Positions 14,554 through 44,803 of a stretch of 64,000 nucleotides of DNA are shown here, piece after piece. Position numbers and translations under genes: made by a program. Positions within the stretch are counted from its first letter, which is position 1, and each line of letters opens with the position of its first letter. Origin of the DNA: an uncultured Chloroflexia bacterium (lineage in GTDB: Bacteria > Chloroflexota > Limnocylindria > Limnocylindrales > CSP1-4); assembly GCA_963813705.1 (NCBI GenBank), contig CAWFAH010000011.1:326341-390340 (forward strand), read 5' to 3'. The notes beneath the pieces are model-generated. The model made no database searches. It was not told the DNA's origin and saw nothing but the letters and a program-made list of their open reading frames with translations.

Positions 14554-14942
14554 CGGCGCGATGCTACCGCCGGGTCCGATGGGAGCGACCGGCTCACGCC
14601 CTCCGTCCCGACCGCGACATGCGATTGTGATGTTCGGCTGACTCCTGGAGATCGCCCGTGCAGCGGACCTCGCTACGCTCCGATGATCGAGCCGCTCGGG
14701 AGGTCGTCGGTGGAACGAGATCCGGACACCACGTGGCGGAGGATCCTCTCCGGCCTGGACCGCCCCGACGGCCTCACCGCCGCCGCTGACGAGGACGCCC
14801 GCTGCCGGCTCGCCCGCGATGTCCTCCGCAAGTCGATCCAGCTGGGGCTGCTGGAGGGCGACCCGCGCGCGATCCGTCCCGGCCCCGCCGAACGGACGTC
14901 GCCCTGGCGCTAGGCCCGGTTCGCCGCGCCGTGGATGCCGCC

Positions 14943-15996
14943 TCAGATCCAGCGCCGGAGGCGAGCGAACAGCAGGACGCCGGCGGCGAGGACGACGATC
15001 GCGAGGACGACGAACCAGAAGCTGAGTGGATCGTCCTTCGGCAGCGGAACCACGACATTCATCCCGAGCAGCCCGGCGATCAGCGATCCCGGGAGCAGCA
15101 GCACGGTCGCCAGGGCGAGGACCTTCATCGTCTCGTTCGTCCGCTGCGCGGTCCGGGTCATGAACACGTCGAAGGATCCGAGCAGGAGGTCGCGGCTGTC
15201 CTCGACGCTCTGGAGCGCCCCCTCGAAACGCCGGGCGACGGCCTGGAACGCCTCCGCGTCCTCGCCCGGGGCGACCACTCCGAAGTCGGGCGTCGCGAAC
15301 GCGGCAAAGACTTCGCGTTGCGCGGTCAGGACACGGCGGAGACGGGCGATCCGCCGGCGAAGTCGCACGAGCTCGGCCAGGACGTCCTCGCGTGCCTCCG
15401 GGCTGAGCGCCTTCCCGTCGAGCCGGTCGACGGCTTCCTCGATGGCGTCGACCGCCTTGAAGTAGCTCGTCACCGCGGCATCGACGGCCGTCGCCACGAA
15501 CGCCGCAGCGTCGATGACCCCGATCGTCGTGTCGGTCTCGATCCGTTCGTCGAGGTGCTGGAGGAGAGCGACCGGCTCGGCGTGGCTCGACACGACGACG
15601 TTCCCGCGCCGCCAGCAGGTCGAGCCAGTGCGGACTCTCGCTCGGATCGTGATCGGCTTCGGTCGCCACGCGCAGGTGGACGTACGAGCCGTGGAGCGCG
15701 ACGTGCGCACCCGGCTCGTGGCGCTCGAGGATCCGGCGCGTGGCCGGCTTCAGCTCGAGGCGCTCGGCGATAGCGGCGACGACCGCGTCCTCGACGTCGC
15801 CCTCGAGGTCGATCCACAGGAGCTGCCGCTTGCCCAGCCGCCGCTGGAGGGCCTCGCCGAGCTCGAGGGTCGCGTCCGTCCGATCCGCGTCGAACAGCCG
15901 GACGGTCACCGCCGGCCCGTCGTGCGCTGCGGCAGACGTCGCGAGCCGTCGCCCATTGCGCGGACCCGGGTTCGGCCCCGCCGGGTGGCCGCGCAC
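14943..15996 (-). pseudogene. corA: CorA-family Mg2+/Co2+ transporter with a 1-nt frameshift near 15601-15613
   Basis: The N-terminal part is in the frame of ORF 13942..15996 (VTVRLFDADRTDATLELGEALQRRLGKRQLLWIDLEGDVED...HWLDLLAA). The remainder is in the frame of ORF 14943..15710 (GNVVVSSHAEPVALLQHLDERIE...TMKVLALATVLLLPGSLIAGLLGMNVVVP with the GMN signature, then the final TM). Confidence 0.85.
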
Positions 15997-16193
15997 GCGA
16001 GGCAGCGCCGGCGGGCCGGATCTGGGCTGGGGTGATCATCCGCGGATGGTTGGCGACGGACCGCTGCACGCATGCCGGGCTCAGCGGGCTGCGGGCATTG
16101 CAACGGGGCGGCGGTTTCGAGGACCTACCGCAACGGATCCGCAGGGTCAGGCCGGAGCGGTGGGCCGCAGCACGCCCTGGCCCGGGCGGTCGA

Positions 16194-16343
16194 TCACGAC
16201 TTCGTCTCGCCGTGCTCGCGGCGCTCCTGTTGACGGTGCGCGCGGCCCGCTCCTCGGCCTCGTCCTTGCTCACCCCACGCTCCTCGTACGACTCCTTGAT
16301 GTGCTCGTACTGGCGCTTGCGTTTCGGCTCGATCCTCGGGCAT
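16194..16343 (-). CDS. Small ORF (49 aa) whose middle is out of frame relative to a conserved small basic protein family (KRxYEHIKES...AARTVNKER type)
   Basis: GGAGG lies 6 nt upstream of the ATG at 16343. The frame of that ATG gives MPEDRAETQAPVRAHQG...ERREHGETKS. The +1 frame of the central segment gives PRIEPKRKRQYEHIKESYEERGVSKDEAEERAARTVNR, which matches my recollection of that family. See findings. Confidence 0.45.
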   Translation of the reverse strand: MPEDRAETQAPVRAHQGVVRGAWGEQGRGRGAGRAHRQQERREHGETKS

Positions 16344-16448
16344 GGTCGCCTCCATTGGTCGTCGGTCGAGGGTGATCACCTTGCACCGGCCGGTGCGGCG
16401 TTCCGATGGCTCGATCCGGACGAGGCGTTGCAGACGCCTCGCGTCGGC

Positions 16449-17127
16449 TCAGTCCGCGGAGCCGGCCTTGGCGGCGGCGGGGATCGATCCAGGTTCACGC
16501 GGCCGGCGGGTCTCGCCGAACGGCAGGAGCTCGAAATGGATGGCCTCGAAGTCCAGGATGAGCTCCGGATGCCGGGTCGCGATCGGCTGCGCGACGTCCC
16601 CGCCGGTGGCCGCGGCCACCTCCTCCAGCTCCGCCAGGCCGAGATCGTGACGAACTGGTCGTCGCCGGCGGTCGCGAGGTAGAGGACCGCGGGACCACGA
16701 CCGGCGGCGATGTCGGACTCGGTGCCTTCCCGGGCCGCCGCGACGTAGTCGGGTCGCCGGCCGAGGCGCACCCGGCCGTGCGACAGCCGGAGGATGCTCG
16801 ACCCAGGGCCGGTCGGGTCGCCGAACCGCGAACTCGATTGGTACGACCTCGAGGCTTCGATCGGTCGTCTCGACGAGGAGCTCGGGATGGAACCGCGACG
16901 TCGGCTCGAACAATTCGCCGAGCACGTCGGCCATCCGCTCGCGCGACGACCAGATCGAGGCCATGACCCGGTCGCCGAGCTCGTCGGGTCCACGCCGGGC
17001 GACGAGGAGATCGAGGAGCCCCGGCCTCGGCCTGGAGGTCCGGGACCAGGACGCCGCGGAGGATCTGGTCGAAGGCCGGCCTGACTGGCCGGAAACGGAA
17101 CAGCCGGATGACCGCGGGACTCGTCAA
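16449..17127 (-). pseudogene. Tandem ABM/Dabb-like (ferredoxin-fold) domain protein broken by at least three frameshifts; family assignment tentative
   Basis: A sensible protein only emerges by stitching frames. The pieces are MTSPAVIRLFRFRPVRPAFDQILRGVLVPDLQAEA (TTG 17127), then GLLDLLVARRGPDELGDRVMASIWSSRERMADVLGELFEPTSRFHPELLVETTDRSLEVVPIEFA, then FGDPTGPGSSILRLSHGRVRLGRRPDYVAAAREGTESDIAAGRGPAVLYLATAGDDQFVTISAW, then ELEEVAAATGGDVAQPIATRHPELILDFEAIHFELLPF. The junctions lie near 17019-17022, 16826-16830 and 16631-16636. Confidence 0.55.
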
Positions 17128-17226
17128 GCCGTCGCACTCCTGCGTTCGAGAGGCTGCGATTGTGGGGCCGCCGGCCCCGAGGACAAGGCGGATGTGAGCC
17201 CGATCGTCCCGGCCGATTGCCCGGCG

Positions 17227-17535
17227 TCAGCGGGGGCGGACGCCCGCCGAGCTGGCAGGCGTGGAGTCGTCGCCCGCCTGGCCACCGCGCGCCGACCCGA
17301 CGACCTCGCCGCCGCGACCACGGCGACGACGACCTCGATCGCCAGCGTCAGCGGGATCTCGTACGGGCCCGGTGGAGCCGGGCAGATGATCGGCTCGCTC
17401 AGCGAGCGATCCGCGCAGGTCGCCGCGTCGGAGATGCGGATCGCTTCCGACCGCGAGACCGATCGTCACGAACCCGAGCGCCGCGAAGACGAGCACCGAG
17501 CGCAGCCAGGCCGGCACCGCCGGCCGTTCCTCCAT
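17227..17535 (-). CDS. Hypothetical small membrane protein (possibly also frameshifted)
   Basis: The N-terminus MEERPAVPAWLRSVLVFAALGFVTIGLAV is a plausible TM helix. The rest of this frame is Arg/Gly-rich. The +1 frame reads more protein-like (SEAIRISDAATCADRSLSEPIICPAPPGPYEIPLTLAIEVVVAVV). Confidence 0.3.
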   Translation of the reverse strand: MEERPAVPAWLRSVLVFAALGFVTIGLAVGSDPHLRRGDLRGSLAERADHLPGSTGPVRDPADAGDRGRRRRGRGGEVVGSARGGQAGDDSTPASSAGVRPR

Positions 17536-17627: not shown

Positions 17628-19607
17628 CTACGCGACGACGCGCTCGTCCACGAAGGGCAGCTCCGGCTCGGCGGTCTCATCCCGGCCGACCGGAGTCCCG
17701 GCGCCGAACACGGCGACCGCCAGCCGGGCGATCGCCGGTTCCTGACCCGGCACGAACTCGAGCCCCAGCTCGATCCGACCGTCCGGGCCGACGACCCGGC
17801 GCCGGACCTCGGCATCGAGGGCGACCGGCGGGCCGCCACCCGCCTGGAGACGGAGGCCGACCCGGGCCCGCTTCGCCTCGAACGAGTCGTCGATGAAGAT
17901 GCGCGCGCCGGTCAGCGAGAGGTCCTCCAGCGCGCACGCCCGGCCATCGAGCGTGACCGGGATCCGGAGCGGGAGCCGGGTCCCGGCTCGCCGGTTGCCG
18001 GCGAACTGGCTCGACCGGATCCGCCCGATCGCGGCCAGGAGCAGCGCCAGGTTGACCGACATGAAGAAGGCGGCGCCGATCGGGGCCCACGGCACGAGGT
18101 AGGCGACCGGGGTCAGCCCGAACAGGGACGCGGCAAACCAGGCGAGGGCGAACGACGACGCCGCGGCGAGGACCGACAAGAGCCGCGGGACGGGCATCCG
18201 GATCCGCCCGCTCGCCGTGCGCCCCTTCGGCGTGACCCGGAAGCGGATCTCACCGAACGGGAGCAGGCCCGTGATCGTCGCCGGCAGGACCGCGGGCATC
18301 CGGAGCACCTCGAACAGGAGCGACAGGATCGGCGGGTAGTGCCCACGGGCGAGCAACCGGAGGGCAACGAACTGCAATCCGAGCGTGAGCAGGAACAGCG
18401 GCGCGAAGACGTCACCCGGCGCGTTGATCGGCACCGCGCCGGTGGCGACCACCGCGATCGGGATGACCATGTAAGCGAACGTCCGCCACGAGTCGAACCA
18501 TCCGAATAGCGTCGTGAGGAAGGCCAGCCGCTGACCGAACGACAGGCCGCGTCCGAACAGAGGGTTCTCGCGGCGCAGGACCTGCATCGCCCCGAGCGCC
18601 CAGCGATTGCGCTGCAGGAGATACGATGCCGCGTCGTCCGGCGCAAGCCCGTGCGCGAGCACCTCGTTGTGGTAGGCGCCGGTCCAGCCGGCGCGGTACA
18701 TCCGGATCGTCGTGTGGATGTCCTCGGTCACGCTGTCGATGCTCACTCCGCCGACCGAGCGGAGGGCGGCTACCCGCACGATCGCCCCGGTGCCGCACCA
18801 GAAGGGGGCGGACCAGCGCGTCTTGGCCGGGGCAATGACGCGGTAGAAGACGGCCTCCTCGTTGAACATCTCGCCGTTCCAGCGCCGGTGGTGTTCGAAC
18901 GACTCGAGGTTGTAGAAGTCCTGCGGAGACTGGGCGAAGGCGAGCCGGTCGTCCGCGAAGTACGGCAGCAGGGCGGTCAGGAACCGGGCCACCGGGACGT
19001 GGTCGGCGTCGAGGATCGCCACGAGGTCTGCGTCGACGACAGCCAGGGCGTGGTTCAGGTTGCCGGCCTTGGCGTTGGCATTGTCGGGCCGGGTCAGGTA
19101 CGACGCACCGAGCTGTTCAGCCAGCCGGCGGACCTCCTCGCGATGGCCGTCGTCGAGGACCCACGTCTCGTGCGCGGGCTGGAGCGCGACGGACGCGGCG
19201 ATCGTGGGCAGCAGAACCTCGACGGGTTCGTTGAACGTCGGGATCAGGACCGCGATCCGCCACGAGCGCGTCGGCGGGTCGGTCGGCGCCTCGGCATCGA
19301 GGCTCCACAGCGCGACCGTGTACAGCACGAGACCGAGCGCGTTGTGAACCTCGACCGCGAACAGCGGGATCGCCACCCACCACCAGGCCAGGTTGATCGT
19401 GCCGGTCAGTCGCCAGGCGAGGTAGCCGAACGTCACGGCGATGGCGACGACGGCGGTCCCGCGAATGAGCAGCTTGCGGGCGGCCGACTCGTGCGCGGGC
19501 ATCGACCCGTCCCGGAAGATGGGCGCGGGACCCCGGGCAGCACGTTGCCGAGTGGCGAAATGGGCCATGCCCGAACCGTACGAACGTCCGGGGCGGGGCG
19601 ACACCAA
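17628..19607 (-). CDS. Processive family-2 glycosyltransferase with C-terminal PilZ domain (BcsA/cellulose-synthase-like, predicted c-di-GMP regulated)
   Basis: IAVLIPTFNEP, VLDDG, AILDADH, SVTEDIHT (TED), FWCGTGAIV (FxCG), LQRNRWALG (QxxRW), and multiple TM helices. PilZ motifs RRAGTR (RxxxR) and DLSLTG (DxSxxG). The start codon is uncertain (19607, or the internal Met codons at MAHF / MPAHE). Confidence 0.9.
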   Translation of the reverse strand: MVSPRPGRSYGSGMAHFATRQRAARGPAPIFRDGSMPAHESAARKLLIRGTAVVAIAVTFGYLAWRLTGTINLAWWWVAIPLFAVEVHNALGLVLYTVALWSLDAEAPTDPPTRSWRIAVLIPTFNEPVEVLLPTIAASVALQPAHETWVLDDGHREEVRRLAEQLGASYLTRPDNANAKAGNLNHALAVVDADLVAILDADHVPVARFLTALLPYFADDRLAFAQSPQDFYNLESFEHHRRWNGEMFNEEAVFYRVIAPAKTRWSAPFWCGTGAIVRVAALRSVGGVSIDSVTEDIHTTIRMYRAGWTGAYHNEVLAHGLAPDDAASYLLQRNRWALGAMQVLRRENPLFGRGLSFGQRLAFLTTLFGWFDSWRTFAYMVIPIAVVATGAVPINAPGDVFAPLFLLTLGLQFVALRLLARGHYPPILSLLFEVLRMPAVLPATITGLLPFGEIRFRVTPKGRTASGRIRMPVPRLLSVLAAASSFALAWFAASLFGLTPVAYLVPWAPIGAAFFMSVNLALLLAAIGRIRSSQFAGNRRAGTRLPLRIPVTLDGRACALEDLSLTGARIFIDDSFEAKRARVGLRLQAGGGPPVALDAEVRRRVVGPDGRIELGLEFVPGQEPAIARLAVAVFGAGTPVGRDETAEPELPFVDERVVA

Positions 19608-19706
19608 GCAACGGTCCGCCGCAGGCCGGCCCGAAAGTCCCGGGCCCGTGCAGGACTGCGGTCGCGGTCGGGCGCGTTGGGCCCAGGAGGAGCCGCGGTC
19701 TCGAGC

Positions 19707-21545
19707 TCAGGCCGCCTGGCCGGCCGACGACTCGAGAGCGGCGATCCGGCCGGACAGATCGTCGAGGGCAGCGAGGTCCTCGACGAGCGCCCCCAGCCGG
19801 CGGGCGCGGTCCGCCGCGTCGTCGGCCGTCGCCCGTTCGACCGCGCTCGCCGCATCGCGTCGCGTCCGGCCGAGCTCCGCGATCCGCTCGCCGAACCGCG
19901 CCCGCATGTCACGCTGGAGCTGGGCGACGAGCGCGTCGAGCCGTCCGTCGACCTCGAAGCGGACGTCTTCCACGAACCGGGCCACGAAGTCGCGCGCCTG
20001 CTGGCGCCGATCCGTCAGCTGGCGACGCCGCTCGCCGGCGACCTCCTTGCCACCGAAGAACAGCGCCGCCCCGAGGAGCGCCGGCCCGACGATCGCGGTC
20101 CCCAGGAGCGCGCCGAGCATCCCCAGCATTTCCACGCCGACCGTTGCCCCGGCGAGCAGCCCGAACCCGGCGAGCACGCCCGAGCGGACCGTGCCGCCGA
20201 AGGCCTGCCCGTCCTGCCACAGGGCCGCCGCATCGACGGCGACCGGGTCGTCGATCGCCGGCGCGGTGTCCTCGTCGGCGATGAGCCGGCTGATCGCGGC
20301 CTGGATCTCGGACGCGCCCTCGGTGGCCTCGAGGAATGCATCGCGAACCGCGGCGGCCACCTCGCGCTGGGTTCGCGCGCTCAGATCGTTCCAGACCCGG
20401 CCGGGATCGACCCGATCGATCTCCTCGTTCGTCTCGCGCAGGATCCGGCGCATCGCGGCCGCGTAGTCGAAGGCGACGCGACCGCGGAGCGCGGCGAACT
20501 CGTCGTCGAGCCGCCCGGACCACTGCGCCCCGGCAGCCTCGAGGGCGGCGACCCGGTCGATCGCGGCCGCCAGCTCGGCGGCGATCGCCGCCCCGGCTTC
20601 CGGACGCTCCAGCGCCCGGCGCTCGAGGACGAGCGGTCCGCGGAGCTCGTCGAGGACGAGCCGCGTCTCGCGGGCGGCGCCGTCCGCGGCGAACGCGCGC
20701 GCCCGGCCCGCGGCGTCGACGGCGACCGCCTCGGCAAACGCTTCGATCCCGCTGTCGTGGCCGAGGCCCGGGTCGCCCAGCTCGTCCGCGGCACGACGCA
20801 GCGAAGCGCTGATCGGGTGCGGCCGGATCGGCAGCTCGATCTCACGGAGCCGCCGCTCGTCGATCTCGAGGATTCGCCGCCACGCCGGGTACATGTCGAT
20901 CTTCGTCAGCGCCACGAGGATGAGCGGGCCAGCGTCGACGGCGCTGGCGAGGAAGTCGAGCTCGGATCGGGTCAATTCGGCGGACGCGTCGGTCGCGAAG
21001 ACGAGGACATCGGCGACCGGGAGGAACGCCAGGGTCGCAGCGGCGTGGGCCGCGTTGAGCCCGCCGATCCCGGGCGTGTCGATGAGACTGATCCCGCGCT
21101 CGAGGTACGGATGCGGCAGGCTGACGACGACCTGCTCGACGGCCAGCCGGTTGTCCGGGTTGCCGCGCTCGGTCACCCAGCCGGCCAGCTCATCGGGGGG
21201 CACGACATCGCCGGTCGACGCGCCGCCCCGCCGGTGGACGATCGCCCCAGCTGGCGTGCCGTAGCGCAGGGTCGTCACCGCCATCGTCGCGAGGTCGTCG
21301 TCGACCGGGCAGACGTCCTGCCCGAGCAGGGCGTTGATCAGCGCGCTCTTGCCCTGCTTGAACTCCCCGACGACACAGACGACGGTCTCGGTCCGCTCGA
21401 GCCGGGATCGGATCCGCTCGAGGCGGCGAACGAGATCCTCGCGACCGCGGACCTCGGCCTGTCCGCGGAGCGCCTCGACGATCCCGGCCGCCGCGCCGGG
21501 CAGCGCCGTGTCATCCCCGCGCGCCGCTGCGCCGCCCTTGGCCAT
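19707..21545 (-). CDS. Dynamin-family large GTPase (bacterial dynamin-like protein), copy 1
   Basis: G1 VVGEFKQGKSALINALLG, G3 LIDTPGIGGL, G4 LVALTKIDMY, followed by a long helical stalk and a hydrophobic paddle-like segment (VLAGFGLLAGATVGVEMLGMLGALLGTAIVGPALLGAALFF). Preferred start is the ATG at 21545, preceded by GGGAGGG. Confidence 0.85.
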   Translation of the reverse strand: MAKGGAAARGDDTALPGAAAGIVEALRGQAEVRGREDLVRRLERIRSRLERTETVVCVVGEFKQGKSALINALLGQDVCPVDDDLATMAVTTLRYGTPAGAIVHRRGGASTGDVVPPDELAGWVTERGNPDNRLAVEQVVVSLPHPYLERGISLIDTPGIGGLNAAHAAATLAFLPVADVLVFATDASAELTRSELDFLASAVDAGPLILVALTKIDMYPAWRRILEIDERRLREIELPIRPHPISASLRRAADELGDPGLGHDSGIEAFAEAVAVDAAGRARAFAADGAARETRLVLDELRGPLVLERRALERPEAGAAIAAELAAAIDRVAALEAAGAQWSGRLDDEFAALRGRVAFDYAAAMRRILRETNEEIDRVDPGRVWNDLSARTQREVAAAVRDAFLEATEGASEIQAAISRLIADEDTAPAIDDPVAVDAAALWQDGQAFGGTVRSGVLAGFGLLAGATVGVEMLGMLGALLGTAIVGPALLGAALFFGGKEVAGERRRQLTDRRQQARDFVARFVEDVRFEVDGRLDALVAQLQRDMRARFGERIAELGRTRRDAASAVERATADDAADRARRLGALVEDLAALDDLSGRIAALESSAGQAA

Positions 21546-21572
21546 CCCGCCCTCCCGGTTCGCCGAAGGATG

Positions 21573-21624
21573 CCGAGTGTACGCCCGGTGGGTCGCTCTG
21601 GCGCCGCCCGGAAGGTACACTCGG
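21573..21624. promoter_or_regulatory. 10-bp inverted repeat CCGAGTGTAC...GTACACTCGG (32-nt spacer) in the divergent dynamin/Hsp70 intergenic region
   Basis: Arms at 21573-21582 and 21615-21624 are exact reverse complements. The region separates the divergent starts at 21545 (-) and 21650 (+). Confidence 0.35.
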
Positions 21625-21649
21625 GCACCTGCTGGCGGAGGACGGCTGG

Positions 21650-23519
21650 GTGGACTACTCGCTCGGGATCGATCTCGGAACGACGTACTCGGCCGCGGCC
21701 ACGGCGCGCGGCGACCGGCTCGAGATCTTCCAGCTCGGCGAGCGGGCGGCGACGATCCCGTCAGTCATCGTCCTGCGCGCCGACGGCGAGGTGCTCACCG
21801 GCGACGCCGCGGAGCGTCGCGCCCTCTCGGAGCCGCTCCGGACCGCGCGCGAGTTCAAGCGCCGGCTCGGGGACCCGACCCCGATCATCCTCGGCGGCAC
21901 GCCGTACGGCGCCGAGGCGCTGACCGGCCATCTGCTGCGGAGCATCGTGGCCAAGGTCGGCGAGCAGATGGGCGGCCCGCCGGCGGCGATCGCCCTGTGC
22001 CACCCGGCGAGCTACGGCGAGTACAAGATCGACCTCCTCCGCCAGGCGGTTCGCCAGGCAGACGTCGGACCCGTCGAGCTGATCACCGAGCCACAGGCGG
22101 CGGCCCTCCACTACGCCCTCCAGGAGCGCGTGCCGACGGGCGAGGTGATCGCGGTCTACGACTTCGGCGGCGGGACCTTCGACGCCACGATCCTGCGCAA
22201 GACCGAGGACGGCTTCGACCAGCTCGGCCGGCCCGAGGGAATGGAGCGGCTCGGCGGGATCGACTTCGACGAGGCGATCTTCGCCCACGTGATGACCACC
22301 GTCCGGGGCGCCGGCGTCACGCTCGACCCGAACGACCCGGCCACGCTGGCCGGGGTGGCCCGGCTGCGCGAGGAATGCCGCCGCGCGAAGGAAGGCCTGT
22401 CGAACGACACGGACGCCACGATCGCGGTCTACCTGCCCGGCATCCAGACCGACGTCCGGCTCACCCGCGAGGAGTTCGAGTCGATGATCCGGCCGCGGAT
22501 CCGCGAGACGATCCTGGCCCTCGAGCGGGCGGCGCGGAGCGCGGGGCTCGAGTTCGCCGGGCTCGACCGGATCCTCCTGGTCGGCGGCAGCTCGCGAATC
22601 CCGCTCGTCGCGGAGATGGTCCGCGAGGCGACGGGGCGACCGATCGCCGTCGACGCCCACCCCAAGCACACCATGGCCCTCGGGGCGGCGTGGGTCGCCG
22701 AGCGGAGCCGGCGGGCGGCCGCTGAGCCCGCCGGCGCCGTCCCAGCGGCGGGTCTGGCGGCGGCCGGCGCGGTGGCGGCCGGCGCGGTGGCGGCCGGTGG
22801 AGCCGGTCTGGCGGCGGCGTCCGCGGCCGGGGCGTCCGCGGTGCCCCCGGCCGGCCAGTCGCCTGTCCTCACCAGCGCGCCCGTCGCGAGCCCCACGACG
22901 CCGGCCGGCGGGCTGCCCGCCGGGGCCGGCGCCGGACCGGCGTCCGCCGTTGCGGCCGGCCGGCGGCCGACGCTGGCGATTGCCGCCGTCGTCGCGCTCG
23001 TGCTCGTCGTGGTGATTGCCGCGGGGGCCTTCGCCTTCCTGCCTCGCGGCGGCTCGACCGGCGGCTCGCCCAGCCCCGGCAGCTCGGCGGTCGGTGGCGC
23101 CTCGCTCCCGGCCAGCCCGTCGATCGCGATCAGCCCGAGCCCGTCGGCGGCGTCGCTCGCCCCGGCCTCGCCGTCGCCCACACCGGTCCCGACGCCCACG
23201 CCGACGCCCGCCGGCAAGCAGGCGCGCATCCTCGGGATCACCGTCAGCGGCGGCCGCTACGTCGTCGACTACCAGGTCTACGGCTACACCCAGAAGCTGC
23301 CCGGGCGAGCACGTCCACTTCTTCTTCGACACCGTCAAGCCGACGCAGGCGGGGATGCCCGGCAAGGGCCCGTGGTACGTCTACGCGGGGCCGATCCCGT
23401 TCAAGGGCTACAAGCTCACGGATCGCCCGACCGGCGCGACCCAGATGTGCATCCTGTACGCCCACCCCGACCACTCGGTCGTCCAGAACACCGGCAACTG
23501 CGTCGACCTGCCGGGCTGA
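21650..23519 (+). CDS. Non-canonical Hsp70-family protein: actin-like ATPase (NBD) + Ala/Pro linker + single TM + Ser/Pro-rich spacer + ~95-aa C-terminal domain; 1-nt frameshift at 23300-23305
   Basis: NBD motifs GIDLGTTYSAAA, VYDFGGGTFDATIL, ILLVGGSSRIPLV. TM PTLAIAAVVALVLVVVIAAGAFAFL. After ...YQVYGYTQKLPG the ORF 21650..23593 frame degenerates. The frame of ORF 23016..23519 continues sensibly (EHVHFFFDTVKPTQAGMPGKGPWYVYAGPIPFKGYKLTDRPTGATQMCILYAHPDHSVVQNTGNCVDLPG, then stop). GTG start with GGAGG 8 nt upstream. Confidence 0.85.
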
Positions 23520-23531
23520 TCGGACGCGAGC

Positions 23532-25013
23532 GTGGCGACCGAGCGGGGATCCCTCGCAGACGCGATCCGCCAGATCGGCCGCGAGGCGCGTGAACTGGCG
23601 GCGGGGACGGACCTCGAACCGGCGGTGGCGGCCGTGTTCCAGCGCCTCGACGCGCCGCTCCGGGTCGCCATCGCGGGGCGGACGAAGGCCGGCAAGTCGA
23701 CGCTCCTGAACGCGCTCGTGGGCGAGCGCCTCGCCGCGACCGACGCGAGCGAGTGCACCAGGATCGTCACCTGGTACCGCCACGCGCTCGGCTACTCGGT
23801 CGCCGCCGAGCTGACCGCAGGCACGACCATCGACCTTCCGTTCCGGCGCGCCGACGGGGCGCTCCGGGTCGACCTCGGAACGCTGGAACCCGAGGCCGTC
23901 GACCGGATCACGGTGGGCTGGCCGGCCGGCCGGCTGGCCGACCTGACGCTGATCGACACGCCCGGGCTCGGCTCGGCGAACGAGGCCGTCTCGGCACGCA
24001 CGACCGAGGCCCTCATCGACGACGACTCCGAGCACCCGGCGGAAGCCGACGCGGTCATCTACCTCATGCGCCACCTCCACCGCTACGACGCCCAGTTCCT
24101 CGAAGCGTTCATCGACCGCTCGCTGGCGCATGCGTCGCCGATCAATGCGATCGTCGTCCTGTCCCGGGCCGACGAGATCGGCGCCGCCCGGCCGGACGCG
24201 CTCGTCTCGGCGGGCGCGGTCGCCGAGCGGTATGCCGCCGACCGCCGGATCCGCGAGCTCGCCTCGGGCGTCGTGCCCGTCGCCGGCCTGATCGCGGAGA
24301 CCGGCGCCACGCTCCGCGAGGCCCAGGTGGCCTGGCTGCGCCAGATCGCCGCGCTCGACGCGGCCCGCCGGGAGGCGCTCCTCCGCTCCGTCGATCGGTT
24401 CCGCGACCCCGAGCTCAACCCGCTGGCGGCCGAGATCCGCGAGGAGCTGCTCGATCGGCTCGGGCTGTTCGGGTTGCGCCTGGCGATCGGGCTCATCGTC
24501 GACGGTCGCGTGCGGACCGCGACCGACCTGTCCCAGGCGCTGCTCGCCATCTCCGGGATCGCCGGGCTCCAGCGGATCCTCGACCAGCGCTTCGCGGCGC
24601 GGTCGGACGCGCTCAAGGCGCGCTCGGCGCTGGCGGCGTTGCGGGCGATCGCCGACGAGCTCGCCCGGCGGTCGGTGCCCGGGGCGAGCCGGCTCGGGGC
24701 GAACATCGAGCGGGTCGAGGCCGGGTCGGAGGAGCTGGCTCTTCTGCGCCTCCTCCACCTCGTTCTCGCCGGGGCCGTCGACGTCAGCCCCGACGAAGGG
24801 GCCGAGATCGACCGGCTGACGGGGTCGGGCAGCATCGGCGAGCGGGTCGGCCTGGCCGCCGATGCGCCGCCGGCCGCCACGCGCGCCGCGGCCCTCGCCG
24901 GCATCGATCGCTGGCGCGCGCGGGCGGCCAGCCCGCTCAGCGACCGGCGAACGGTCGAGGCCGCCGACATCGTGATCCGCGCCTACGAGCGGGTCCACGC
25001 CCTGGCAGCCTGA
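23532..25013 (+). CDS. Dynamin-family large GTPase (bacterial dynamin-like protein), copy 2
   Basis: G1 IAGRTKAGKSTLLNALVG, G3 LIDTPGLGSA, G4-like VVLSRADEIG, helical C-terminal half. GTG start 12 nt after the corrected Hsp70 stop. Confidence 0.85.
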   Translation: MATERGSLADAIRQIGREARELAAGTDLEPAVAAVFQRLDAPLRVAIAGRTKAGKSTLLNALVGERLAATDASECTRIVTWYRHALGYSVAAELTAGTTIDLPFRRADGALRVDLGTLEPEAVDRITVGWPAGRLADLTLIDTPGLGSANEAVSARTTEALIDDDSEHPAEADAVIYLMRHLHRYDAQFLEAFIDRSLAHASPINAIVVLSRADEIGAARPDALVSAGAVAERYAADRRIRELASGVVPVAGLIAETGATLREAQVAWLRQIAALDAARREALLRSVDRFRDPELNPLAAEIREELLDRLGLFGLRLAIGLIVDGRVRTATDLSQALLAISGIAGLQRILDQRFAARSDALKARSALAALRAIADELARRSVPGASRLGANIERVEAGSEELALLRLLHLVLAGAVDVSPDEGAEIDRLTGSGSIGERVGLAADAPPAATRAAALAGIDRWRARAASPLSDRRTVEAADIVIRAYERVHALAA

Positions 25014-39056: not shown

Positions 39057-41399
39057 TCAGGGGACGATGAGATGGACCGGGTTGCCCCGGATGTCGACCT
39101 GCCAGGTCGTCAGGTCGGTGCTGTAGTCGGACGCCGAGCCCGTCCCCATCGTGTACCGAATCTTCCACCAGCCACGCTCGCTGGTCGTGCTGTCGGTCGA
39201 TGGGTGCGGGGCGCTGTAGGTGGGCGGCAGCTGGACCTCGATCGTCAGCCAGCAGCCGTTGTAGAGGCTGTTCCCGCCGGTGTTCGTGGTGATCGACGTC
39301 GCGCCCTTGACCGTGGCGCTGCTGCAGCTCGAGGCGGCGCCGTCGGACGTCCCGCGGGTCGCGTGGTAGTTGAACGCCACGGGCGTGTAGTCCGTCGCGC
39401 CGGGCTGGAGGATCTCGAGCCGCGCCGAGAGCTGCCCGGTGTCGCCCGGATCCCACAGGTTGATGACCATCGTCTTGCCGGCGTGCACCGCGTCGATCTG
39501 GGCGAGGTAGAACTCGGTCGACCGGCCGGCCGGCAACCGGACGTACGCCTCCATCGCGCCGATGCCGTAGACCCGGGGCGTGCCCCCGTTGGCACTGGCG
39601 TAGATCGCGAAGGCGTTGAGAGCGGTCGTGTTGTTCTGGTCGTTCGGGCTGCCCGGATCGGTCGACGAGGTGTGCAGCCGGTAGGTCGTCCCGTTCGCCC
39701 CGCCGGTCAGGCCGCTCGCCAGCTGGTACCAGCCGCGGCGTGGATTGCTCGGGCTGCCGCTCTGCCAGTTCTCGGCGTCGTAGTGCCAGGCCAGGTTGGA
39801 GCAGTCGCCGATCCCGTTCGTCGGGTTCTGGCCGGCGGCCGCGAAGATGCTTCGGTCCTCGTACGACAGGCGTCGGAACGTAGAGCCCGAGCTGGCGATG
39901 GGGTTCCCGTCGTCGGTCGAGTCGTACAGCGTGTTCTTCGTGTCGTAGAGGTCGTAGAACGCGCTCACCGGCTGGCGCGAGCTGTAGCCGTTGGATCCGC
40001 CGACGGTCCAGTTCTCACCGGTGCCGGCCGAGGTCGTCGAGTCGCAGAAGCCCGGATCGAAGACCCAGACCGAGCCGCCGCTCGACCCGGCGGGCATGTC
40101 GATCGCGTAGTTGTAATACGCGTCCGGCAGGTACTGCGCGTCGGGGTCGGTGTTGTCGACGTTGTTCGGCGCGAACCCGGAGCGCGACTCGTAGCGGGTC
40201 ATGTAGGCGTCGCCCTGGATGTTCGGGGCGCCCTGGCTCTGCATCGCGCCCCAGAAGTTCTGGGGTGCGAGCGGCTGGCCCTGCGGCCCGATCATGTCGA
40301 CGTCCTCGAGGTCAGTGGTCGTCGAGGTCGTGACGGTGTGGAACGTCACCCGCACCTCGAGCGTGTCGACGGCCGCGGTCCGGTTGCAGCCTGCGCCGCG
40401 GAGGTTGGTGATCCGGACCCGGAAGAGGTTGTCGGCGAAGTCGCCGCGGATCCAGGCATGCCCGCCCCAGGCCGCGGTCGAGGCCTGGCTGCCGAACGTC
40501 GTCTGGGTCTCGCTCGTGGTGAGGGTCAGCTGCTGGGCGGTGGACCAGGTCGGGCTGCCGACGTTCCCGTTCCAGGTGGTGTCGATCGACAGCCGGCAGT
40601 TCGTCGTCGTCCCGTTGGTGCCGGTCAGACCGGCACGGAGGCGGACCTCGAGCCCGTCGATGATGGCATTGCTCGGGATCCCGTTGTAGCCGAGGAGCGC
40701 GAAGTTGCCCCACAGCTGGGTCGCGTTGTTCGTGCCCGACGTCGCATACCGGTTGTCGTTGTTGCGGTCGGCGTTGTCGGCCTGGTTCCACGACCCGCTC
40801 AGGGCGTTGGCCGCGTCGTCCCAGCCGGTGTCGTCCTGCGGCCCCGAGGTCGTCTTCGTCGTCGACAGGGCGTCGCGCAGGAAGCCGACTCCGTAGTAGT
40901 TCTGCGGGCTGCCCATGGGCACGGGCAGGACGTACTCGGCCTTTGAGGTTCGCGTGGCCGTGATCGTCGGGATCCCGAAGATCCGCATGAAGTAGGTGTT
41001 GATCGGCGCCGAGATCGTCACGTTGAGGCGGCGCTTGTTGTTGGTGTCCTGGACGGGCGTCACCGTGACCCCGCCGTGGTGGTCGTCGTAGCCGTTCTTG
41101 GTCGCCTCGTCGCGGGCGACGCCATACGCGGTCGACGGGTCGCCGGGCAGCCAGACGACGCCGGCCAGGGCGGCAGCGTCGGCCGCGCGCTGGACGCGCA
41201 GGGTGTTCGCCCAGTACCAGCTGACGTCGACGACGATGGCGGTGATCCCGGTCAGGACGAAGATGCTGATGACGAACAGGACGAGCATCTGGCCGCGGGC
41301 CCGGGCGCCCGCGACCGACGGATGAGTTCGCTGGCAAAGCCGGCTCAAAGCCAATCCCCCTGCTTTCGTACGCGCACCGGGATGGGCCATTCGGGTCAT
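39057..41399 (-). CDS. Large TadG-like protein 1 (N-terminal Tad/TadE-type pseudopilin-like TM segment + >700-aa extracytoplasmic region of unknown fold)
   Basis: ARARGQMLVLFVISIFVLTGITAIVVDVSWYWANTLRVQRAADAAALAGV matches the TadG/Tad_N N-terminus. KAEYVLPVPMGSP follows. The paralogue at 41866..44202 is colinear over the full length and shares the C-terminal GNPVHLIVP. Confidence 0.75.
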   Translation of the reverse strand: MTRMAHPGARTKAGGLALSRLCQRTHPSVAGARARGQMLVLFVISIFVLTGITAIVVDVSWYWANTLRVQRAADAAALAGVVWLPGDPSTAYGVARDEATKNGYDDHHGGVTVTPVQDTNNKRRLNVTISAPINTYFMRIFGIPTITATRTSKAEYVLPVPMGSPQNYYGVGFLRDALSTTKTTSGPQDDTGWDDAANALSGSWNQADNADRNNDNRYATSGTNNATQLWGNFALLGYNGIPSNAIIDGLEVRLRAGLTGTNGTTTNCRLSIDTTWNGNVGSPTWSTAQQLTLTTSETQTTFGSQASTAAWGGHAWIRGDFADNLFRVRITNLRGAGCNRTAAVDTLEVRVTFHTVTTSTTTDLEDVDMIGPQGQPLAPQNFWGAMQSQGAPNIQGDAYMTRYESRSGFAPNNVDNTDPDAQYLPDAYYNYAIDMPAGSSGGSVWVFDPGFCDSTTSAGTGENWTVGGSNGYSSRQPVSAFYDLYDTKNTLYDSTDDGNPIASSGSTFRRLSYEDRSIFAAAGQNPTNGIGDCSNLAWHYDAENWQSGSPSNPRRGWYQLASGLTGGANGTTYRLHTSSTDPGSPNDQNNTTALNAFAIYASANGGTPRVYGIGAMEAYVRLPAGRSTEFYLAQIDAVHAGKTMVINLWDPGDTGQLSARLEILQPGATDYTPVAFNYHATRGTSDGAASSCSSATVKGATSITTNTGGNSLYNGCWLTIEVQLPPTYSAPHPSTDSTTSERGWWKIRYTMGTGSASDYSTDLTTWQVDIRGNPVHLIVP
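41146..41303. repeat. Near-identical 158-bp block shared with 43970-44127 (5' ends of the two TadG-like genes)
   Basis: 3 mismatches in 158 bp (41160, 41175, 41187). 41188-41303 is identical to 44012-44127 (116 bp). The flanks on both sides are clearly diverged. Confidence 0.85.
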
Positions 41400-41446
41400 T
41401 CCGGGACTAGTACGTTAGTCAGGGGATCATTTCGCCCGACATTACA
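41393..41446 (-). promoter_or_regulatory. Copy B of the conserved upstream element (GTAATG-22 nt-TAACGT-ACTAG), ending at the TadG-like 1 ATG
   Basis: Minus strand: GTAATGTCGGGCGAAATGATCCCCTGACTAACGTACTAGTCCCGGAATGACCC. The ATG at 41399 is 12 nt after the TANNNT hexamer, which predicts a near-leaderless mRNA. Confidence 0.5.
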
Positions 41447-41628
41447 GAAGGGCCTTCGGGCACCGTCCGGCCCACGTTGTGGTGCGCGCCGGCCCCGTGC
41501 CGGAGCGGTTTGCCGGGCTGCGGGGTGGACGGGGTTGCCGGGGTGCCTTGCGCCGGGGTCCTCGGGGCTCCGGTGGGCTCCGGCGCGGAGCGGTGGAGCG
41601 CCGTGGTCGCAGTCCGCCGGGGGGACAG

Positions 41629-41667
41629 CACGAAGCCCGCCGGGGCTGGGTTCCGGCGGGCTTCGTG
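41629..41667. terminator. Perfect 15-bp stem hairpin inside the 466-bp spacer between the TadG-like genes
   Basis: CACGAAGCCCGCCGG-GGCTGGGTT-CCGGCGGGCTTCGTG. Confidence 0.5.
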
Positions 41668-41793
41668 GTCGGGAGGGGCCGGGACCCGGGTCCCGACAGG
41701 GGTCAGCGTGCGATCTCGGATGCCCACGGTGCGGCGTCGACCTTTCGGACCGCTTTTCGAGGGTGCGCCGGGGCACCGCCAGGTCCGCGACAC

Positions 41794-41826
41794 GACGAAG
41801 CCGCCGGACGTGCCGGCGGCTTCGTC
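41794..41826. terminator. Perfect 14-bp stem / 5-nt loop hairpin 40 nt downstream of the TadG-like gene 2 stop
   Basis: GACGAAGCCGCCGG-ACGTG-CCGGCGGCTTCGTC. Confidence 0.6.
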
Positions 41827-41865
41827 AGAGTCCGTGTCTGGAGGGGCCGCCCGGCGGCCCGGTCG

Positions 41866-44202: not shown

Positions 44203-44215
44203 CGTGTCGTACTCC

Positions 44216-44803
44216 CTAGCTCGGGTTGAGGGCCATGACGGTCCGATCGGACATCTGGAAGGCCGGGGTGCCGGCCATGCCGAGGAAGATCCCGAGCGGG
44301 CTGATCAGCTTGTAGCTGTAGACGAGGCTCACCCCGATCGAATCGGGGCTCGCGCCGTTGTCGCGGCCGCAGGCGTTCCAGTTGACGGTGGTCGACTTGA
44401 AGATGAGGGGCACGCCGTCGACCGTCGGGCCGGCGCCCGGGATCCAGGTGTTGACGCTCGAGCCGACCTGGTTGCCATTCGCATCGGCCTTGTAGATCTT
44501 GACCGCGCTGATCCGGCTGATGACGACCGGCGAACCGGGGCTCGTCAGGACGCGCTGGACGCCGGCCACGATCTGGTCGTCGACCTGGGCGCACGGGACG
44601 TTGGTGGTCCCGGGCCCGAGGGCCGCGCCGACGCGGGCACCCTCACGGGTCGCGTACTCCAGGGTCAGGTTGTGGCTGAAGGCGAAGCCGAACTCGAGCA
44701 TTCCGAACAGGAGCATCACGAACACCGGCACGGAGACGGCGAACTCGACCAGCCCCTGGCCGCGACTGCCGGCCCGCCGGTCGGCGAAGCGGCGGCAGCT
44801 CAC
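44216..44803 (-). CDS. TadE-like pseudopilin protein 2
   Basis: N-terminus RAGSRGQGLVEFAVSVPVFVMLLFGMLEFGFAF carries the TadE family signature (G/Q-x-L-V-E-F plus a hydrophobic helix). 4-nt overlap with the upstream TadE-like gene. Confidence 0.75.
   Translation of the reverse strand: MSCRRFADRRAGSRGQGLVEFAVSVPVFVMLLFGMLEFGFAFSHNLTLEYATREGARVGAALGPGTTNVPCAQVDDQIVAGVQRVLTSPGSPVVISRISAVKIYKADANGNQVGSSVNTWIPGAGPTVDGVPLIFKSTTVNWNACGRDNGASPDSIGVSLVYSYKLISPLGIFLGMAGTPAFQMSDRTVMALNPS

Follow-up and report, generated by a model that had tools for sequence, protein, structure and literature searches.

The dynamin-like GTPases (DLPs) IniA and IniC are known from tuberculosis drug tolerance, and GspL and PilM-PilN combine an actin-fold cytoplasmic domain, a transmembrane (TM) helix and a periplasmic domain, a design that joins components of the envelope to an NTPase in the cytoplasm. 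Membrane fission is carried out by IniA (PMC6715688), and vesicle release needs both IniA and IniC, which interact (PMC10240201); induction by cell-wall synthesis inhibitors is a further hallmark of the pair (PMC6715688, PMC10240201). In Streptomyces, two hydrophobic segments hold DynB at the membrane, and DynA is its soluble partner (PMC8748795); Bacillus subtilis DynA has a part in phage defence (PMC12998192). E. coli HscC, with the tail-anchored DjlB and DjlC, is a specialised Hsp70 at the plasma membrane (PMC8215388), and some DO-GTPase/GAP1 systems, in which GAP1 stands beside one or more TRAFAC GTPases, often with Zn ribbons, include HSP70, GrpE and an HSP70 without the substrate-binding domain (SBD) (Kaur, Burroughs, Iyer and Aravind 2020, eLife; PMC7159879).

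Here we analyse a 64,000-nucleotide stretch of DNA (the window) from an uncultured Chloroflexia bacterium, in which two DLP genes, DLP1 and DLP2, flank a gene for an Hsp70-like protein. The IniA/IniC-type dynamin pair is already known; what is new here is the Hsp70-like third component, of which a literature search found no description. The original prediction could not map the Hsp70-like partner to any characterised system, which stands; the dynamin pair can be placed.

Alignments place the dynamin pair in the IniA/IniC family

The two dynamin genes and their features are as follows.

19707..21545 (−): DLP1, IniA-type dynamin-like GTPase, 612 aa from an ATG preceded by a GGGAGG ribosome-binding site (Dynamin_N and IniA matches)
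21345-21368 (−): DLP1 G1 motif, GEFKQGKS
21069-21080 (−): DLP1 G3 motif, DTPG
20895-20906 (−): DLP1 G4 motif, TKID
20049-20180 (−): DLP1 predicted hydrophobic, lipid-interacting region, aa 456-499
23532..25013 (+): DLP2, IniC-type dynamin-like GTPase, 493 aa (Dynamin_N and IniC-position matches)
23676-23702 (+): DLP2 G1 motif, GRTKAGKST
23955-23966 (+): DLP2 G3 motif, DTPG
24162-24173 (+): DLP2 SRAD, where the G4 motif (N/T)KxD is expected

Both proteins match Pfam Dynamin_N above its cutoff of 27 bits (DLP1 at 77.6, DLP2 at 40.3), which bears out the earlier recognition of two dynamin-family GTPases from their G1 and DTPG motifs; DLP1 has the G4 motif too. Residues 26-589 of DLP1 align with residues 11-580 of M. 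smegmatis IniA (PDB 6j72; E 7.1e-57), a full-length match that covers the helical neck/trunk and the hydrophobic and basic lipid-interacting region of the IniA type, and by this comparison IniA is its closest solved relative. Both dynamins also match an iniB-like/iniA-like/iniC-like locus of Nocardia farcinica (L087): DLP1 is 33% identical to the IniA-position protein, and DLP2 is 42% identical over its full length to the IniC-position protein (E 2e-86), where the IniC assignment is one of synteny (the gene after iniB-like and iniA-like genes) and not of comparison with a reference M. tuberculosis IniC. DLP2 is IniC-sized and, like IniC, has no lipid-binding segment, no hydrophobic segment being found in it; its relatives number 434 in species-representative genomes. 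The AlphaFold2 model of DLP2 is all-helical past residue 260 with a mean pLDDT of only 61.6, and Foldseek returned no meaningful match.

Judged by these alignments, the pair belongs to the IniA/IniC family, and the likeness extends to the Actinomycetota, where the DLP genes are in tandem and often overlap, as do iniA-iniC. The present locus differs from iniBAC in that the DLP pair is split across divergent strands and in that the window holds no IniB-like Gly/Ala-rich gene, which is present in N. farcinica L087; instead there is a TM-anchored Hsp70-like ATPase, unreported in the IniA/IniC literature that we found.

A predicted membrane-spanning Hsp70-like protein

The Hsp70-like gene encodes five consecutive regions.

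21650..22699 (+): Hsp70-family nucleotide-binding domain (NBD), aa 1-350 (Pfam HSP70, DnaK NBD structures)
22700..22969 (+): Ala/Gly/Pro-rich cytoplasmic linker, aa 351-440, with Arg-Arg right before the TM helix (composition)
22970..23041 (+): single TM helix, aa 441-464, predicted N-in/C-out (family topology)
23042..23200 (+): Ser/Pro-rich extracytoplasmic stalk, aa 465-517 (composition)
23201..23519 (+): C-terminal extracytoplasmic β-sandwich, aa 518-622 (105 aa), and stop (−1 correction needed)

In the window this gene is frameshifted by one surplus G in the GGG run at 23303-23305. The uncorrected ORF (21650-23593) stays in frame 1, ends in an out-of-frame, Arg-rich tail and overlaps the start of DLP2, and the C-terminal domain, the stop codon (23517-23519) and the 12-nt gap to DLP2 all require one base to be removed from the run. 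The extra G is probably an assembly error, because a contig that is 99.8% identical across 17.5-33.5 kb (L001) reads CCCGGC where the window reads CCCGGGC, sporadic 1-nt indels occur in both assemblies, and sister assemblies contain split copies of the gene. The corrected protein (622 aa) matches database protein P0001 with 100% identity, and the C-terminal domain closes all 120 of its 120 best homologues. The original prediction gave the tail GEHVHFFFDTVKP...NCVDLPG and placed DLP2 12 nt past the Hsp70 stop; it had read silently through the frameshift, and neither feature is in frame in the window, although both are restored by the one-base correction. In four loci DLP2 begins 12-13 nt after the stop codon of the Hsp70-like gene.

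The ATPase domain had been described as complete and the SBD as missing, and our results agree. The NBD contains the motifs GIDLGTTYS, DFGGGTFD and LVGGSSRIP and aligns to DnaK NBD structures (2v7y at 2e-41). Since the Pfam HSP70 match (3e-52) ends near profile position 372 of 599, the SBD is absent, together with the canonical interdomain linker and the helical lid. Scores against the NCBIfam DnaK/HscA models (~170-177 bits) are far under the cutoffs of 620-822, and a bacterial Hsp70 review makes no mention of a TM-anchored Hsp70 NBD family. The residues D8, K70, E147, D171, T176 and D178 are invariant in 59 of 59 family members, and on this sequence evidence the NBD is catalytically intact. 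No conserved J-domain or GrpE gene lies near the module (84 loci and the window), which leaves Hsp70-type cycling conjectural.

Across the family the linker spans 36-194 aa and is ~53% Ala/Gly/Pro. One strong hydrophobic helix is present in 55 of 58 complete homologues, with a Lys/Arg count of 2.9 in the N-terminal flank versus 0.44 in the C-terminal flank (N>C in 54 of 55); this bias places the NBD inside and the tail outside, as originally proposed. Like GspL and PilM-PilN, the protein is thus predicted to be bitopic, with an actin/Hsp70-superfamily domain inside, one TM helix and a domain outside, whereas those proteins are not Hsp70-family members, lack ATP hydrolysis of the Hsp70 kind, and have secretion or pilus ATPases as partners, not dynamins. 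HscC, too, is a specialised Hsp70 that works at the plasma membrane (PMC8215388), but it retains its SBD and reaches the membrane via J-proteins, whereas the Hsp70-like protein here is SBD-less and predicted to span the membrane itself.

The C-terminal ecto-domain is modelled by AlphaFold2 as a β-sandwich (pLDDT 96.6), for which we found no PDB neighbour and no Pfam or NCBIfam model. It occurs in at least 661 protein clusters, including receptor Ser/Thr kinases, and in Ser/Thr kinases and an FHA protein the same domain is placed after a TM helix. Over 194 copies of the domain, three His and two Cys residues reach 91-99% conservation, and the ecto-domain of the Hsp70-like protein has an even number of Cys residues. 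Receptor kinases carry this domain type as their extracellular part, which fits the earlier suggestion that the protein senses the outside and supports such a role for it; the domain also occurs in TIR, CHAT and protease proteins, and the trigger may be either envelope stress or biological conflict.

Conserved linkage of the three genes

Linkage was counted from the DLP side at loci with at least 4 kb of flank on both sides of the pair, in species-representative genomes of Chloroflexota and Actinomycetota. An Hsp70-NBD homologue (at least 45% identity) lies within 8 kb of the DLP pair at 46 of 49 such loci (94%), or at 44 of 47 after removal of two duplicate loci; the three that have no Hsp70-like gene are L021, L034 and L077. 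Seen from the Hsp70 side, where contigs of at least 8 kb were counted, a dynamin pair accompanies about two-thirds of the loci, and at 15 of 41 no DLP is present in the available sequence. The Hsp70-like family therefore has DLP-independent members or a looser linkage, and to call the protein an obligatory partner, a term used in the original prediction, is too strong given these exceptions on both sides. Module loci show three gene orders and unrelated flanks in two phyla, the module is conserved vertically in core-genome contexts, and ORF clustering over 84 loci found no further gene family shared around it. DLP1, the Hsp70-like gene and DLP2 are a conserved unit, and their linkage, recurring in rearranged orders, is not due to chance.

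DLP1 and the Hsp70-like gene are divergent across a 104-bp intergenic region with a perfect 10-nt inverted repeat. Its length and position had been correctly reported; a likelier interpretation of its two arms is a pair of divergent −10-like promoter elements.

21573..21582 (−): left arm, putative −10-like promoter element GTACACTCGG, towards DLP1
21615..21624 (+): right arm, putative −10-like promoter element GTACACTCGG, towards the Hsp70-like gene

In 15 related loci a copy of the pattern G[GC]TA[GC]ACTCGG points towards each of the two genes, the arms lying 0 to ~60 nt apart; the 64-kb window has just 2 matches to it, against 0.1 expected.

A candidate membrane-remodelling module

On balance we lean towards reading the locus as three conserved genes for membrane remodelling, a module in which the Hsp70-like protein would act as a transmembrane adaptor or regulator of DLP1 and DLP2. 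The gene identities, the conservation of linkage and motifs, the topology and the use of the ecto-domain in receptors are the observations on which it builds. In this organism the module genes would be driven by a pair of back-to-back promoters that share a −10-like element, with the Hsp70-like gene and DLP2 co-transcribed. DLP1 would bind the membrane via its hydrophobic and basic loop, with DLP2 as its soluble IniC-type partner. The Hsp70-like protein would be a bitopic ATPase, with the NBD inside, a long flexible linker, a TM helix, a Ser/Pro stalk and a His/Cys β-sandwich outside. Its ecto-domain would read the state of the envelope and thereby bring about ATP-dependent control of the DLP1/DLP2 heteromer at the membrane's inner face, by recruitment, assembly or disassembly; in this scheme we infer the physical interaction, the direction of signalling and the physiological trigger. 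The downstream output may be fission, vesicle release or repair, as for IniA/IniC. Against the module reading stand the exceptions to linkage on both sides, the lack of a conserved J-domain or GrpE gene nearby and the presence of the ecto-domain in TIR, CHAT and protease proteins; in addition, the ATP-binding motifs of the N. farcinica Hsp70-like copy are degenerate and, to our knowledge, the mycobacterial iniBAC operon has IniB and no Hsp70-like gene.

Bacterial dynamins such as IniA/IniC and their relatives are tied to drug tolerance, vesicle release, membrane repair and division, and a membrane-spanning third component would be a concrete candidate for the missing control step, the targeting and switching-on of dynamins. 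A broader and more speculative proposal, which we hold only tentatively and consider rather doubtful at this stage, is that membrane-spanning SBD-less Hsp70-family ATPases are a hitherto unrecognised class of dedicated outside-in regulators of IniA/IniC-type dynamins, the ecto-domain detecting a cue from the envelope or the cell's exterior and the NBD spending ATP on assembling or dismantling the heteromer. If true, they would be a prokaryotic counterpart of the eukaryotic cooperation between Hsc70 and dynamin in membrane traffic. Two uncatalogued protein modules are defined here, the TM-anchored Hsp70 NBD family and the extracytoplasmic β-sandwich domain (at least 661 clusters), and the Hsp70-like component is present in culturable Actinomycetes, among them Actinoplanes, Solwaraspora and Krasilnikovia, in which it is amenable to deletion and tagging.

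Alternative readings

The divisome is a common site of action for actin-fold ATPases, FtsA among them, and this, together with the vertical conservation of the module in core-genome contexts, would suit a role in cell division, in which the DLP pair stabilises the divisome or septal membrane like Streptomyces DynA/DynB and is tied by the Hsp70-like protein to the synthesis of septal wall, not to stress. DLP1 and DLP2 show the same split into an anchored and a soluble member as DynB and DynA, in an actinobacterial-type lineage (PMC8748795). We consider this role unlikely: the likeness to DynA/DynB is architectural, and IniA is the closest solved relative; many carriers of the module are non-sporulating, uncultured lineages; and ORF clustering over the 84 loci revealed no linked division genes at any of them. 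The partners of DynA/DynB at sporulation septa are SepF2, SsgB and SepX, and an Hsp70-like partner is unreported in the literature that we found. The architecture invoked overlaps that of the favoured module; the physiological role differs.

Hsp110 acts on Hsp70 through NBD-NBD contacts, and it is conceivable, if improbable, that the Hsp70-like protein is not a dynamin regulator but an Hsp110-like exchange factor or holdase that brings DnaK to the membrane, or that it merely shares regulation with the DLPs. Its bona fide Hsp70 NBD, the position of the N. farcinica iniB/A/C-like genes directly upstream of dnaK-grpE-dnaJ, and the roughly one-third of the family not beside DLPs would be consistent with chaperone support. 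However, the module has no conserved J-protein or GrpE gene, a purely cytoplasmic co-chaperone would hardly be expected to keep an ecto-domain and a TM helix conserved, and linkage on the DLP side is as high as 94%.

A role in defence, another option raised originally, fared worse. An anti-phage or conflict system akin to Eleos (LeoA/LeoBC) or B. subtilis DynA, with the Hsp70-like protein sensing phage attack from outside, would share with these the paired or fused-pair dynamin GTPases at the membrane; DynA does contribute to phage defence (PMC12998192), TIR and CHAT proteins also carry the ecto-domain, and both DLPs give weak matches (1e-12 to 1e-15) to the LeoA/LeoBC profiles of PADLOC. Yet these matches are confined to G-domain segments (for LeoA, e.g. 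profile positions 33-86 of 559), no PADLOC model matches the Hsp70-like protein, and the known systems have no such component. The neighbours of the module are housekeeping or metabolic genes that vary between loci, with no defence genes beside it in the window or at related loci; conservation is on a class-to-phylum scale and not patchy; and searches found the module in no viral contigs and gave only 3 weak plasmid matches. We regard this role as very unlikely.

Membership of the DO-GTPase/GAP1 systems is more improbable still, although these also pair GTPases with HSP70-family proteins, SBD-less ones included, are largely actinobacterial and are in some cases membrane-proximal: the GTPases here are dynamin-family and IniA-like, not of the TRAFAC family described there (PMC7159879), and GAP1, FNIII, DnaJ, GrpE and variable effectors are neither in the window nor conserved over the 84 loci. 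A chance neighbourhood or annotation artefact, which the many spurious ORFs of high-GC genomes and the frameshift in the window might suggest, is scarcely credible in view of linkage in two phyla despite gene-order rearrangement, hundreds of close homologues for each of the three proteins, and a near-identical contig without the frameshift.

One further gene had been described as adjacent to the cluster.

17628-19607 (−): GT2+PilZ synthase

It is present as reported and is not part of the module: no strain other than this one and its near-identical relative has it beside the three genes, and it is an incidental neighbour.

A putative IniA/IniC-type dynamin pair around an Hsp70-like gene

The window has a G+C content of ~72%, and its nearest database proteins carry the labels Candidatus Limnocylindrales/Limnocylindria or 'uncultured Chloroflexia'. 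The genes of the interval are listed below (Pfam Dynamin_N cutoff, 27 bits).

17628-19607, minus strand: GT2 glycosyltransferase with a C-terminal PilZ domain (Pfam GT2 families and PilZ)
19707-21545, minus strand: dynamin-like GTPase DLP1, starting at an ATG with a GGGAGG ribosome-binding site (Pfam Dynamin_N, 77.6 bits)
start at 21650, plus strand: Hsp70-like gene (Pfam HSP70, 3e-52, nucleotide-binding domain (NBD) part of the profile only)
23532-25013, plus strand: dynamin-like GTPase DLP2 (Pfam Dynamin_N, 40.3 bits)

DLP1 matches Mycobacterium smegmatis IniA (PDB 6j72) over its full length (E 7e-57, residues 26-589 against 11-580), and the alignment takes in a hydrophobic stretch and basic residues matching the lipid-interacting region described for IniA (PMC6715688). 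Among solved structures DLP2 has no relative beyond the G domain, and Foldseek with its low-confidence AlphaFold2 model (12-sequence alignment, pLDDT 61.6) gave no meaningful match. Nocardia farcinica carries relatives of both proteins: its IniA-like protein is 33% identical to DLP1 (E 9e-55), and the protein in the IniC position is 42% identical to DLP2 over the full length (E 2e-86). IniC is described as the smaller of the two proteins and as lacking an obvious lipid-binding sequence; it interacts with IniA, and vesicle release needs both (PMC10240201). With 493 residues and no hydrophobic segment, DLP2 fits this description. The two genes thus appear to encode dynamins of the IniA/IniC type.

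The GT2-PilZ protein is BcsA-like (TIGR03030 CelA, 325 bits, under the cutoff of 699) and is plausibly a c-di-GMP-gated polysaccharide synthase. The original prediction had noted that the dynamin cluster lies next to it, but it adjoins the dynamin genes only in this strain and in L001, a contig that shares 99.8% identity with the window across 17.5-33.5 kb; a functional tie was rejected because none of 83 other loci has a GT2-PilZ match. Just past this gene, at 14596-17500, identity to L001 falls from ~99.8% to ~94-95%, with 24-31 mismatches per 500 bp and many indels, and the alignment stops at 14596; the segment is probably strain-variable or a recombination boundary. Elsewhere in the window, two large minus-strand ORFs (39057-41414 and 41866-44304) have an unusually low first-codon-position GC (0.52-0.56), and the region 39057-44304 shows a strong positive GC skew and a lower overall GC.

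The three genes form a conserved module

Co-occurrence of dynamin genes with a membrane-anchored Hsp70-type NBD, which the original prediction had proposed to check, was found across two phyla. Three long-contig homologues of the Hsp70-like protein all lie in the order DLP1(-)|Hsp70(+)-DLP2(+), with entirely different flanks. With a DLP2 alignment as query, a search of genomes sampled at one per species returned 434 relatives, of which the best 80 loci were analysed; they come from Chloroflexota (Limnocylindria-like genomes and Thermomicrobiales) and many Actinomycetota (Acidimicrobiia, Nitriliruptorales, Micromonosporaceae, Aeromicrobium, Pseudonocardiaceae and Micrococcales). Where the DLP pair had at least 4 kb of sequence to each side, an Hsp70-type NBD lay within 8 kb at 46 of 49 loci (44 of 47 without two duplicate loci). 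These linked NBDs are 45-94% identical to that of the window, compared with 29% for N. farcinica DnaK. Gene order is DLP1<-|->Hsp70->DLP2 in Limnocylindria-like genomes, and Hsp70<-|->DLP1->DLP2 or DLP1->DLP2->Hsp70 in Actinomycetota. An arrangement kept across both phyla, in three gene orders and amid varied flanks, is not a chance neighbourhood.

ORF clustering of 84 loci recovered the DLPs in 84 loci and the Hsp70-like family in 61, the next family reaching 12; no conserved J-domain or GrpE partner appeared among them. Since only the DLPs and the Hsp70-like family are shared across these loci, the module consists of DLP1, DLP2 and the Hsp70-like gene, and of these three only. At some actinomycetotal loci (L039, L083) a single DLP pair is surrounded by two or three paralogues of the TM-anchored Hsp70-NBD gene, whose tails can reach ~770 residues. 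Carriers that can be cultured include Actinoplanes, Solwaraspora, Krasilnikovia and Nocardia.

Seen from the Hsp70 side, the linkage is looser. Metagenomes were scanned with a family-specific NBD segment, characterised by patterns such as [AGV]REFKRR[LV]G, which gave 523 relatives; REFKRRLGDPTP is a marker of the family. Of the 80 best loci, 48 have a DLP in the available sequence. When only those spanning 8 kb or more are counted (41 loci), 26 have one and 15 do not, so that calling the Hsp70-like protein an 'obligatory partner' was an overstatement. The unlinked copies have unrelated, partly envelope-related neighbours (PMT, LCP, FtsX, BaxI, a sigma factor), and neither GAP1 nor other GTPases were found near them. 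Within this clade the ATPase accompanies almost all DLP pairs, but its family extends beyond DLP linkage.

A membrane-anchored Hsp70 nucleotide-binding domain

The predicted atypical Hsp70, with one TM helix and an ecto-domain in place of a canonical substrate-binding domain (SBD), was borne out by Pfam, NCBIfam and 58 homologues. Scores against NCBIfam DnaK/HscA models (~170-177 bits against cutoffs of 620-822) are consistent with an absent SBD, and neither an 'LLLDV'-type linker nor an SBD follows residue 350. Instead, a 90-residue Ala/Gly/Pro-rich linker leads to a TM helix (residues 441-464), a Ser/Pro stalk and a 105-residue terminal domain. The NBD aligns to DnaK NBD structures (2v7y, 2e-41), and all 59 of 59 family members keep D8, K70, E147, D171, T176, D178 and the glycine loops unchanged, which argues for a working ATPase. 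One strong TM helix is present in 55 of 58 complete homologues. Lys/Arg residues average 2.9 in the 15 positions before the helix and 0.44 after it, with the N-terminal side richer in 54 of 55, and the number of cysteines in the outside part is always even (0, 2, 4 or 6); on this basis the NBD is cytoplasmic and the tail extracytoplasmic.

The gene is frameshifted in the window, which the original prediction did not mention. The uncorrected ORF (21650-23593) acquires, past '...YTQKLPG', an Arg-rich, clearly out-of-frame tail that overlaps DLP2, and the predicted C-terminus 'EHVHFFFDTVKP...NCVDLPG' sits in the next frame (23307-23519). Shortening the GGG run at 23303-23305 by one base yields a 622-residue protein 100% identical to database protein P0001, encoded on L001, where the window's CCCGGGC reads CCCGGC. 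The continuous frame to NCVDLPG and the 12-nt gap between the Hsp70 stop and the DLP2 start accordingly hold after this correction and fail for the window as it stands. L001 has single-base indels of its own (relative to it, at window positions 25792, 26637, 29395 and 29836), which break its SulP-STAS and FtsX-domain genes, both intact in the window, and the Hsp70-like gene is split into pieces in sister assemblies. Given these observations, the extra G is a probable assembly error; taken with the L001 indels, it points to errors of the long-read homopolymer type in each of the two assemblies. Were the extra G genuine, the protein of this strain would retain its TM helix and stalk but not a complete ecto-domain. 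A word-indexed protein search with the ecto-domain returns mostly 'proteins' of 80-190 residues; the two checked are frameshift-split pieces of the Hsp70-like gene lying between DLP1 and DLP2, and such pieces do not speak for ecto-domains that occur alone.

The ecto-domain is shared with receptor kinases

Each of the 120 best homologues has the terminal domain, as do 33 of the 58 tails that are complete, among them tails from Micromonosporaceae; the remaining family members have longer, unrelated tails. AlphaFold2 predicts a six-strand β-sandwich with high confidence (pLDDT 96.6, pTM 0.89). In the structural comparison proposed earlier, Foldseek matched this model to no PDB entry below E 0.2; what came up were generic sandwiches of the FnIII/SKICH type (TM ~0.5). 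Neither Pfam nor NCBIfam has a model for the domain. An exhaustive profile search with a threshold of E <= 1e-3 recovered 661 clusters, of which 224 reached E <= 1e-30, and the 144 listed representatives (P0361-P0504) include 43 Ser/Thr protein kinases, 9 Hsp70-like proteins and one FHA protein, cluster counts of this kind under-representing the well-conserved Hsp70-like proteins. The kinases and the FHA protein carry one to five copies after a single TM helix; further carriers are S8 subtilases, FGE-sulfatase, TIR+FGE-sulfatase, CHAT, PD40, Calx-beta and P-domain proteins. The domain has three histidines (HxH on one strand and one later) that are 91-93% conserved over 194 copies, and two cysteines conserved at 98-99%; these residues suggest a disulfide and a site that binds a metal or ligand. 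The domain, at 23201-23516 in the window, defines a family that has no name, counts at least 661 clusters and bears the signature HxH...H plus two Cys.

Receptor kinases use PASTA domains in a manner that this arrangement resembles. The earlier proposal that the Hsp70-like protein senses the outside gains its best evidence here from the use of the same domain in receptor kinases, and the protein may indeed read something outside the cell.

A candidate dynamin machine with a transmembrane ATPase adaptor

In the best-supported picture, the IniA/IniC-type pair would be a fission, repair or vesiculation machine, and the Hsp70-like protein would be its dedicated transmembrane ATPase adaptor. A co-chaperone or shared-regulation role tied to DnaK is unlikely, the suggestive evidence for it coming from N. 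farcinica locus L087 (NZ_LN868939.1, 1004959-1024452), where a gene for a 1042-residue Gly/Ala-rich iniB-like protein, iniA-like and iniC-like genes are followed directly by dnaK-grpE-dnaJ. There, an atypical TM-anchored Hsp70-NBD gene with degenerate ATP-binding motifs lies divergently upstream of the iniB-like gene, on the opposite strand. The L087 replicon is labelled a plasmid, yet it is 2.66 Mb long and essentially unannotated; a search of a plasmid collection gave only three weak matches, including N. farcinica. We give equally low odds to a divisome-linked role such as that of Streptomyces DynAB (PMC8748795). The defence module offered as an option in the original prediction is poorly supported, as PADLOC matches are limited to G-domain segments (on which ground membership of Eleos, LeoA/LeoBC, was also rejected) and the Hsp70-like protein matches none, the neighbours are housekeeping genes that vary between loci, and no viral contig carries the Hsp70-like family.

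The nearest published theme is that of the DO-GTPase/GAP1 systems, which include SBD-less HSP70s (PMC7159879). The SBD-less HSP70 is common to both, whereas the defining GAP1 protein and the GTPase family of those systems are absent here, and membership was rejected. In the mainly open-access literature we found no Hsp70-like partner of IniA/IniC or DynA/DynB, although a prior description is possible, and no TM-anchored NBD family in work on IniA, IniA/IniC, DynAB, Cj-DLP and bacterial Hsp70. What was already known is the IniA/IniC-type dynamin pair; what appears to be new is an undescribed, conserved Hsp70-like third component and an unnamed ecto-domain family.

Two divergent promoter-like elements

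The perfect 10-nt arms described between DLP1 and the Hsp70-like gene were confirmed, but they read better as two divergent −10-like elements than as an inverted repeat: each arm, read towards its gene, is GTACACTCGG. In 15 related loci the Hsp70-like gene is preceded by the element G[GC]TA[GC]ACTCGG, whose reverse complement faces DLP1 in most of them. The element contains a TAnnnT hexamer, a type of −10 box in high-GC Gram-positive lineages, and occurs only twice in 64 kb (0.1 expected). A sigma-70 consensus scan found nothing, as expected at this GC content and for this promoter type. The spacing of the arms varies from zero (a contiguous palindrome, in locus L006) to ~60 nt among relatives, and a hairpin or single dimer operator was rejected because the arms are directional copies at such variable distances. 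This favours two divergent promoters of one type, from which we infer that both units would be co-expressed. Several actinobacterial loci of the order Hsp70<-|->DLP1 (L024, L025, L032, L035 and L052) also have a conserved intergenic GGGCCGAA(A/T)G box ~30 nt upstream of the TAGACT-type hexamer facing DLP1, which could serve as a −35 element or as a site for a regulator.
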